Shown here piece after piece: positions 42,433 through 44,108 of a stretch of 44,108 nt of DNA; the stretch's first letter is position 1; each line of letters begins with the position of its first letter. A program made the translations under genes and the position numbers. The notes below the pieces were generated by a model. That model ran no database searches and was not told where the DNA came from. It saw only the letters and a list, made by a program, of their open reading frames with translations. Origin of the DNA: a virus (lineage: Duplodnaviria; Heunggongvirae; Uroviricota; Caudoviricetes); the IMG/VR virus record IMGVR_UViG_2529292919_000018. One strand, 5' to 3'.

Positions 42433-42824
42433 TTTAATTTATCGCGAGAAAAACTATGTCTGTAGTGATATCAGGTGCGCTGACTGATGGCGCAGACTCA
42501 GGTCGATCGCAATCACGAGATTTATCAACGTCAGCGGGAGATGAAGGAAGAACTGAATAATCTTGATGATTTACGCTTAATCCGAGCGTTTGACGTTACG
42601 CAATAAAAAACACTGATATGCCAGCCCCTTGTAAAAATATTGAGCAGGGACGCGTTGAGTTGAATTGGATTTACATGGGGCACCTTGGGGCATATATGGG
42701 ACATAAAAAGACCTCAGACAAACAGTAAAATCGAGATCAGGAGTTTTTAGAAAAAATACAACCATCTGAAAAAACTCAGAAAACACCAAAAAATCCACAG
42801 GATGGCAAAAAATATCTATGAATT

Positions 42825-44108
42825 ATGGACTTCCAGTTATATTCGCTCGGCGCAGCGTTAGTGTTTCATGAAATATTTTTTCCTGAATCATCAACGGCAA
42901 TGGCGTTAATTCTGGCAATGGGAACCTATGGTGCAGGTTATGTGGCACGTATTGTCGGAGCATTTATTTTCGGCAAAATGGGCGACAGAATAGGGCGTAA
43001 AAAAGTGCTCTTTATTACCATCACCATGATGGGGATCTGTACCACCTTAATTGGTGTGTTACCGACCTATGCACAGATTGGTGTTTTTGCACCCATCTTG
43101 CTGGTGACGCTTCGTATTATTCAGGGGTTGGGTGCAGGTGCGGAAATTTCCGGTGCCGGTACGATGCTGGCGGAATATGCGCCAAAAGGTAAGCGCGGAA
43201 TTATCTCCTCATTTGTGGCTATGGGAACTAACTGCGGAACCTTGAGCGCAACGGCAATCTGGGCCTTTATGTTCTTCATTCTCAGTAAAGAGGAACTGCT
43301 GGCGTGGGGATGGCGTATACCTTTCCTGGCGAGCGTTGTCGTGATGGTCTTTGCTATCTGGTTGCGTATGAATCTGAAAGAAAGCCCGGTCTTTGAGAAG
43401 GTTAACGACAGCAACCAACCGACAGCAAAACCTGCACCTGCTGGTAGCATGTTCCAGAGCAAATCCTTCTGGCTGGCAACAGGACTGCGTTTTGGTCAGG
43501 CTGGTAACTCAGGTTTAATTCAGACTTTCCTTGCAGGCTATTTAGTGCAGACGTTATTGTTTAACAAAGCAATTCCAACAGATGCATTGATGATCAGTTC
43601 GATTCTCGGCTTTATGACCATTCCGTTCCTTGGTTGGTTATCCGATAAAATTGGTCGCCGGATCCCGTATATTATTATGAATACCTCTGCGATTGTGCTG
43701 GCATGGCCAATGCTTTCTATCATCGTAGATAAAAGCTATGCCCCGAGCACCATTATGGTTGCACTGATTGTGATTCATAACTGTGCGGTGCTTGGATTAT
43801 TTGCTCTGGAAAACATTACCATGGCAGAAATGTTCGGCTGTAAAAACCGCTTTACCCGAATGGCTATTTCTAAAGAAATTGGTGGTCTTATCGCTTCCGG
43901 TTTTGGTCCTATCCTGGCGGGGATTTTCTGCACCATGACGGAATCCTGGTATCCGATCGCCATTATGATCATGGCATATTCTGTGATTGGTTTAATCTCT
44001 GCGCTGAAAATGCCAGAAGTGAAAGACCGTGATTTAAGTGCGCTGGAAGACGCCGCAGAAGATCAACCACATGTTGTAAGAGCTGCGCAACCGTCCAGAA
44101 GTCTGTAA
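42825..44108 (+). CDS. MFS transporter (metabolite:H+ symporter family), apparently 5'-truncated at the prophage junction (ydfJ-like?)
   Basis: MFS motif GKMGDRIGRKK at residues about 50-60, roughly 35 residues closer to the N-terminus than in full-length relatives (ShiA-type), implying a missing first helix. CDS ends exactly at window end. Confidence 0.8.
   Translation: MDFQLYSLGAALVFHEIFFPESSTAMALILAMGTYGAGYVARIVGAFIFGKMGDRIGRKKVLFITITMMGICTTLIGVLPTYAQIGVFAPILLVTLRIIQGLGAGAEISGAGTMLAEYAPKGKRGIISSFVAMGTNCGTLSATAIWAFMFFILSKEELLAWGWRIPFLASVVVMVFAIWLRMNLKESPVFEKVNDSNQPTAKPAPAGSMFQSKSFWLATGLRFGQAGNSGLIQTFLAGYLVQTLLFNKAIPTDALMISSILGFMTIPFLGWLSDKIGRRIPYIIMNTSAIVLAWPMLSIIVDKSYAPSTIMVALIVIHNCAVLGLFALENITMAEMFGCKNRFTRMAISKEIGGLIASGFGPILAGIFCTMTESWYPIAIMIMAYSVIGLISALKMPEVKDRDLSALEDAAEDQPHVVRAAQPSRSL

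Follow-up and report, generated by a model that had tools for sequence, protein, structure and literature searches.

A Qin-type attachment junction in ydfJ at the tail end of a lambdoid prophage whose two ends appear to be non-cognate

The phage element described here is carried on a stretch of viral DNA of 44,108 nucleotides (IMG/VR record IMGVR_UViG_2529292919_000018; "the window" below means this whole stretch), the right end of which lies inside the transporter gene ydfJ of Escherichia coli. The point at which phage DNA passes into ydfJ, at 42820-42833, is very probably the tail-side (attR-type) attachment (att) junction left by a lambdoid phage with an IntQ (Qin-type) tyrosine integrase. 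The integrase gene at the left end of the window belongs to the family of the potB/potC site. Comparison with related loci indicates that the element has non-cognate ends, and that the junction in ydfJ was made by an integrase other than the one in the window. The window corresponds to positions 99,766-143,873 of the NCBI draft contig AIEY01000035.1 (GCA_000249115.2), with 100% identity over the three stretches compared.

The att core in the window, GAATTATGGACTTC (42820-42833, plus strand), occupies the same nucleotides as the junction between the Qin prophage and ydfJ in K-12. The K-12 cores are GAATTATGGATTTC at the Qin/ydfJ junction and GAATTTATGGATTTC at the ynfP/intQ junction, and both have GAATT(T)ATGGATTTC in common. 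The core pattern of the ydfJ site, GAATT(T)ATGGAYTTC, spans codons 27-31 of the gene (E-F-M-D-F). The ydfJ coding sequence of K-12 (b1543) consists of the same 1284 nucleotides as the ydfJ piece in the window; Qin is annotated from 9 nucleotides inside it, and the tail fibre genes tfaQ and stfQ lie near ydfJ. At the far end of Qin, the 36-codon ynfP adjoins the intQ pseudogene. Thus, the window and Qin agree in target gene, breakpoint, core and orientation, the tail fibre end being placed beside a 427-codon piece of ydfJ in both. Integration of Qin has been reported to take away 28 codons of ydfJ together with its promoter (PMC6379469).

By itself the core is unremarkable, as one match to GAATTATGGACTTC with up to two mismatches is found in the window against 0.45 expected. 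The weight rests on two other observations: the homology to ydfJ ends exactly at the core, and the junction coincides with that of K-12. Over 42834-44108 (codon 32 onward), the intact ydfJ of E2348/69 is matched without a single mismatch, and the similarity stops abruptly at the core. The ydfJ genes of K-12, UTME-13, E300082 and M217 have 24-31 differences from the window. The integration therefore appears to be a fresh one, into an E2348/69-like host. A reading made earlier from the sequence alone had proposed that phage integration truncated a gene of an MFS transporter here, and had likened this to the Qin/ydfJ arrangement of K-12. Both proposals are borne out, the 5' end of ydfJ being cut at the exact position found in K-12.

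The alleles on the two sides of the core make it possible to place the strand exchange. The ydfJ site of E2348/69 is empty, and its bacterial site (attB) reads GAATTTATGGACTTC. In E300082, two ydfJ-type prophages are integrated in tandem (locus L006, 4400-4700), and between them lies a complete attP-like sequence, composed of a P arm, GAATTATGGATTTC as the core and a P' arm. This tandem integration reveals the phage allele of the core; the phage site (attP, or POP') reads GAATTATGGATTTC. The C at 42830 of the window is the host allele, as in the E2348/69 attB, and the two-T form before 42825, with one T missing, is the phage allele. Since the host C is kept at 42830 while the phage form precedes 42825, the strand exchange probably took place within ATGGA (42825-42829). 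An IntQ-type integrase would have recombined the phage core GAATTATGGATTTC with the bacterial GAATTTATGGACTTC, splitting ydfJ. The first 28 codons would then stay beside the phage integrase, where they correspond to the "ynfP" piece of K-12, and codons 29-455 would come to lie beside the tail fibre genes.

The empty site can be restored. An 800-nucleotide empty site was built in silico by joining the rspB-ynfP side of K-12 to the ydfJ side at the core, and a single stretch with 100% identity to it was found. At least 80% of this sequence is held in one place by 2010 of 5426 complete E. coli genomes, and ~63% of the complete genomes are without an uninterrupted rspB-ydfJ site. The gene itself is matched in 5373 of the 5426 by megablast. 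The att sequence of ydfJ prophages has also been defined experimentally (PMC8112680). The right end of the window therefore has the breakpoint, a homologous phage arm and a restorable attB; the cognate IntQ and ynfP with a second core are absent from the other end of the element.

The phage DNA next to the core is of the same origin as the junction. Positions 42557-42819 (plus strand) form the P arm of an IntQ/Qin-type att site, which is specific to prophages at ydfJ. Its left boundary was set with a prophage that is integrated at serT (tRNA-Ser) and has a third kind of integrase. This prophage has the same tail module, and its 99% match to the window ends exactly at 42556 and then diverges, so that the sequence up to 42556 belongs to the tail module. 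The ydfJ-site loci of UTME-13, E300082 and cS51a are identical to the window over 42400-42829; the first two have an IntQ-type integrase, and the integrase end of cS51a lies outside the sequence compared. Over 42685-42833, the window has 80.7% identity to the last 150 nucleotides of K-12 Qin. Three direct copies of TGGGRCA lie within the P arm (42676-42682, 42686-42692 and 42697-42703, plus strand). The same motif occurs two to three times at the same place in the P arms of E200086 and K-12, and twice in the P' (integrase-side) arms of four IntQ-type prophages, at 60 and 71 nucleotides from the core. A single 8-mer alone is not above chance. The TGGGRCA repeats are thus candidate arm-type binding sites of the integrase.

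At the end of the tail module, at 42487-42606 (plus strand), lies a pseudogene fragment of 39 codons, a DUF4376 remnant that is annotated in matching loci as [quoted passage not shown]. Prophages at three different sites of integration have this remnant as the last piece of their tail module.

The left end of the window tells of another site. The gene at 1-1119 (minus strand) encodes a lambda-type integrase of 372 amino acids with Arm-DNA-bind_1 and Phage_integrase domains, and the gene at 1088-1357 (minus strand) is annotated in identical loci as the excisionase paired with a potB/potC-type integrase. The integrase is 99.7% identical to the one beside potC in E2348/69, and a BLASTP comparison of it with IntQ-type integrases gave no significant match. 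The integrase of the UTME-13 prophage at ydfJ, for comparison, is 95% identical to K-12 IntQ. Window positions 1-1500 are 100% identical in O26:H11 and other genomes, and in the O26:H11 locus that was examined potC adjoins the integrase. To the left of the integrase, AIEY01000035.1 carries potC, potD, ymfA, ycfZ, cobB, nagK and lolEDC; to the right of the element it carries the truncated ydfJ (ydfJ'), then a split ydfI, ydfZ, rspR, ydfG and dcp.

The 166 nucleotides immediately left of the window are identical to the attL of the E2348/69 potB/potC prophage (NC_011601.1, ~1.268-1.309 Mb). The potB/potC core CACCTTCTTATTCA lies 145-158 nucleotides left of the window, and the P' arm contains TCTCCAAAA-type repeats, as it does in E2348/69, where the core is repeated next to potB. 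With up to two mismatches allowed, CACCTTCTTATTCA is absent from the window. Thus, the integrase and the attL next to potC are those of a potB/potC prophage, and on the right, where an attR core and potB would be expected, ydfJ-ydfI follows. The window and the 8.6 kb left of it contain neither a 5' fragment of ydfJ (or ynfP) nor a second ydfJ-type core, and no 5' fragment of ydfJ contiguous with 42825 was found. The sequence-only reading had expected a repeated att core at the two ends of the element. There is none beyond the integrase, and GAATTATGGACTTC occurs once in the window; the repeat is missing because the element is a hybrid, and not because the junction is false.

The two parts of the element meet in a short joint at 17657-17903. 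It was mapped by single nucleotide polymorphisms against five related assemblies with an E2348-type potC prophage (L033, L034, L037, L039 and L040). Between 14,072 and 17,849, four of these do not differ from the window at all and L037 differs once, at 17,683. From 17,850 through the tRNA cluster, all five have one fixed set of differences from the window, and their late region beyond 19,355 is lambda-like. Unrelated genomes with the late region of the window are identical to it over 17,903-19,445 and differ further left. The joint lies upstream of a DNA methyltransferase gene and three tRNA genes, with E2348/69-type potC prophage on its left and the phage block ending at ydfJ on its right. 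Hence, the ~17.8 kb on the left, including the integrase and the excisionase, belong to a resident potB/potC prophage, and the DNA from ~17.9 kb to 42819 belongs to the IntQ-type phage. An earlier placement of the joint at the end of the last tRNA gene (19,355, where the similarity to E2348/69 stops) was replaced by this mapping. Over positions 1-19355 the window is 99.7% identical to the E2348/69 potB/potC prophage. In that prophage a lambda-like late region follows, with potB at its end, whereas the window switches at ~17.7-17.9 kb and ends at ydfJ.

The likeliest cause of such a hybrid is an inversion of ~0.45 Mb between two prophages, and on balance this is what probably happened. The potC prophage of E2348/69 runs from integrase to tail along the plus strand, and prophages at ydfJ, such as Qin in K-12, run from tail to integrase. 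Because the two are inversely oriented, one crossover gives exactly the order potC, integrase to tail, ydfJ'-ydfI. In E2348/69, potC lies at 1.268 Mb and ydfJ at 1.728 Mb. Judging by the K-12 map, the interval between them presumably contains dif and the terminus. The contig carries halves of two att sites, host flanks from two distant loci and the predicted orientation.

By combining these observations, it is possible to describe how the hybrid may have arisen. An IntQ-type phage would have been newly acquired in ydfJ by an E2348/69-like strain with a resident potB/potC prophage in the opposite chromosomal orientation. A crossover between the two prophages would then have occurred within a short stretch of identity, no longer than roughly 200-250 bp. 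This would invert ~0.45 Mb across the replication terminus and produce two reciprocal hybrid prophages, each with non-cognate att halves. The hybrids would no longer be excisable by site-specific recombination, and ydfJ'-ydfI would be moved far from rspAB. Rearrangements of this kind have precedents. Terminus-centred inversions mediated by prophages are reported for 25.7% of closed O157:H7 clade 8 genomes (PMC9997748), and inversions involving ydfJ prophages are reported as well (PMC8112680). Like the window, they have non-cognate ends between two distant loci with inversely oriented prophages. The present case differs in that it comes from one draft contig, and in that the potB-ydfJ pair is not named in the passages of PMC9997748 and PMC8112680 that were consulted.

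Several facts weigh against the inversion. It is drawn from a draft contig, in which the join at ~17.7-17.9 kb may be a product of misassembly. The combination of this left half with this late region is missing from all 5426 complete E. coli genomes, among which E2348/69 covers the most of window positions 1-25000 (77%). The hybrid is known from one assembly only; the short-read assemblies SRR094164 and SRR094165, which carry the same tail fibre protein, are presumed to come from the same strain.

These facts lead to the most serious alternative, which is possible but a good deal less likely: the ydfJ junction is real and the 44-kb element is a chimeric contig. The strain would then hold two ordinary prophages, one from potC to potB and one from rspB to ydfJ, between which the assembler switched near 17.7-17.9 kb. 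The contig comes from a whole-genome shotgun draft, and the switch would fall in a stretch common to lambdoid prophages, upstream of the DNA methyltransferase gene and the tRNA cluster. An independent short-read assembly breaks at ~19,328 of the window, which points to a tRNA-Arg region that is repeated in the genome, and the same hybrid is missing from all complete genomes. The exact repeat on which an assembler could have switched is, however, roughly 200-250 bp long at most, a length that reads or read pairs often span; the window agrees with its closest relatives up to 17,849 and with the other phage type from 17,850/17,903. Closely related assemblies, apparently from the same project, cross the region without switching, and real inversions involving ydfJ prophages are documented (PMC9997748, PMC8112680). 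Because the switch tract is short and the related assemblies cross it correctly, a real recombinant is favoured over a chimera.

The picture implicit in the sequence-only reading, that a single phage entered ydfJ by means of the integrase at 1-1119 and that the window ends are a cognate attL and attR, is very improbable. Prophages do usually have such a layout, with an integrase gene and a host junction at opposite ends. Nevertheless, this integrase is nearly identical (99.7%) to that of a prophage lying between potC and potB, and similarity between it and IntQ could not be detected. In AIEY01000035.1 it adjoins potC on the left, with a core and arm of potB/potC type that are 100% identical to the attL of E2348/69. 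The missing 5' piece of ydfJ and a second ydfJ-type core are found neither in the window nor in the 8.6 kb on its left, and the arm beside ydfJ is of IntQ type. That the 427-codon reading frame is a native full-length gene behind an ordinary intergenic region of 392 bp is hardly conceivable: it is open, starts with ATG and is an annotated coding sequence in K-12, but a 455-codon form, 100% identical from codon 29, adjoins rspB in many strains, including E2348/69, the extra 28 residues are conserved in the orthologues of four further genera, and the DNA upstream of 42820 is phage DNA common only to prophages at the ydfJ site.

The junction itself is known and ordinary, with a known site, a known truncation and a known phage family. 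As a site where lambdoid phages integrate, ydfJ belongs to the textbook cases, and the loss of 28 codons has been published and is flagged in RefSeq. What is added here is the recognition that the element bounded by the window has non-cognate ends. A region bounded by an integrase and a host gene can still be a hybrid, and predictions of att sites or of excision made from its two ends would mislead in this case. Precise excision of a real hybrid would be beyond both the potB/potC integrase and IntQ, as each of them requires both of its own att halves. A lambdoid prophage with a contractile tail and a Septu system, complete by all appearances, would then be trapped in the chromosome. Provided that the contig is correct, it represents a potB-ydfJ inversion mediated by prophages in the E2348/69 lineage, one more case of a known rearrangement and of prophage "grounding".

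The element can be compared with Qin and with the other prophages at ydfJ. Qin is a decayed 20-kb remnant in which ynfT, ydfK and pinQ lie between tfaQ and ydfJ, and it keeps its pseudogenised IntQ beside ynfP. The phage part of the window, in contrast, looks complete, has a contractile-tail late region and is not attached to the cognate IntQ end. The ydfJ-site prophages of enteropathogenic, Shiga toxin-producing and commensal E. coli (PPydfJ; UTME-13, E300082, E200086 and SE11) have the arm repeats in common with the window. E200086 is 96.8% identical to it over 42284-44108. The late region and tail module of E300082 resemble those of the window at 98.6-99.1%, whereas UTME-13 and E200086 are only partly alike outside the tail fibre end. 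The PPydfJ prophages differ from the window in having an IntQ-type integrase of 426-431 amino acids with an excisionase, where the window has the potB/potC-type integrase next to potC. Such an integrase is found in all three complete ydfJ-site prophages with the tail module of the window that were examined. In UTME-13 and E200086 it lies directly beside rspB; unlike these, the integrase of E300082 abuts the second ydfJ-type prophage.

The host part of the junction, ydfJ', is an open reading frame at 42825-44108 (plus strand) that comprises codons 29-455 of the MHS-family MFS transporter gene ydfJ and starts at the internal Met29 codon inside the att core. The frame is still readable as 427 codons because the core contains this Met codon. 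The 427-residue product matches MFS_1 and Sugar_tr, and scores 453.5 bits with TIGR00883, the metabolite/H+ symporter model, against a cut-off of 443.45. In near-identical loci, RefSeq labels it [quoted passage not shown]. By sequence the product is thus an MHS-family YdfJ, with 427 residues instead of the ~455 of a full-length protein that includes the N-terminal part of helix 1. Intact ydfJ of E. coli (M217, E2348/69) has 1368 nucleotides and encodes 455 amino acids. The orthologues of Citrobacter, Enterobacter, Lelliottia and Pantoea have 454-458 amino acids and 83-85% identity; alignment to full-length homologues and to K-12 ydfJ, which the sequence-only reading had proposed as a check, shows that these orthologues carry the extra N-terminus, and a natural start at Met29 was not found among them.

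The same reading had noted that the conserved G-x-x-x-D-R-x-G-R-K motif lies too near the N-terminus of the product, by about 35 residues, and had concluded that the first helix was removed. The shortfall is real, and its size is 28 residues: the motif occupies residues 50-59 of the 427-residue product and 78-87 of the full-length protein. Positions 37-40 of the profiles of the paralogues ShiA, ProP and PRK10406 align with residue 2 of the product. The N-terminal loss is equally real, and it stops short of a whole helix. The missing part probably consists of the cytoplasmic N-terminus and about the first half of helix 1, ending at the conserved E-F of E-F-M-D-F. In an alignment of ydfJ orthologues, the missing residues 12-28 (DLVKAAVSGWLGTALEF) vary hardly at all. 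An AlphaFold2 model of full-length YdfJ, made from a shallow alignment of 16 sequences (mean predicted local distance difference test score of 40, predicted template modelling score of 0.37), places helices at 10-28 and 31-46, which is a weak hint and was not used as evidence. A search for sequence-related solved structures of YdfJ at E <= 1e-5 returned none.

An unoccupied site has rspA and rspB, on the strand of ydfJ, immediately before that gene; in the window ydfJ' is separated from both. Because the conserved N-terminal half of helix 1 is lost and the gene is cut off from rspA-rspB, ydfJ' is most likely a non-functional pseudogene. A point on the other side is that the annotation of K-12, with the same truncation, still calls ydfJ a putative transporter. 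Just right of the window, ydfI is split in AIEY01000035.1 by an IS21-family element with IstB-like and transposase reading frames (locus L023, 13420-16809). The two genes that follow the phage junction are thus both disrupted.

The last phage gene before the junction is the tail fibre assembly gene (41902-42432, plus strand; 176 codons), whose product matches the Pfam family Caudo_TAP with E = 7.8e-21. The longest open reading frame of this gene begins at 41866, and the 176-codon start is the one used in near-identical RefSeq-style loci and in AIEY01000035.1. The frame ends with a TGA stop codon at 42432, and the next long frame starts at 42825. The stretch of about 390 bp without long reading frames that had been described after this gene is indeed present, and measures 392 bp (42433-42824); frames of its own on the strand given do not exceed 57 amino acids, and the others reach in from outside. 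A consensus scan found a weak terminator-like hairpin at 42417-42429, by the end of the tail fibre assembly gene, and a crude one of 42300-43000 found no sigma-70-like promoter. An Rfam scan of 42300-42950 returned nothing at E <= 1, and an exact-match scan of a viral contig collection with a 41-nucleotide junction sequence gave no match, so that the window is not part of that collection.

In the left part of the window, the early region next to the integrase and excisionase (1419-6900) is Qin-like in its genes, which encode an exonuclease, DicB, homologues of YdfC, YdfB and YdfA, and a DicA-like repressor. The integrase beside them is not IntQ, and the integrase/att cassette therefore appears to be freely exchanged among these lambdoid phages. 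Numerous genomes lack the integrase and excisionase of the window but match it from position 1410.

The three phage tRNA genes downstream of the joint (19106-19355, plus strand) have the anticodons CAT (Met according to ARAGORN, Ile according to RefSeq), TCG (Arg) and TCT (Arg). Across the middle one, ~20 positions separate E2348/69 and its relatives from the window. Several different late regions are joined directly after the third tRNA gene, which therefore seems to mark a hot spot for mosaic joints.

The early region also contains a Septu-type defence system of two genes (10994-12989, plus strand), which encode a PtuA AAA ATPase of 457 amino acids (E = 2e-165) and a PtuB HNH nuclease of 211 amino acids (E = 1.1e-83; both with PADLOC models). 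The system lies in the part that is common to the window and the potC prophage of E2348/69. It is followed by an IS481-family transposase gene (13244-14331, minus strand), which is intact in E2348/69 and in some of the related assemblies, with 362 amino acids, and is split in the window into pieces that are called in AIEY01000035.1 as 179 and 93 amino acids.

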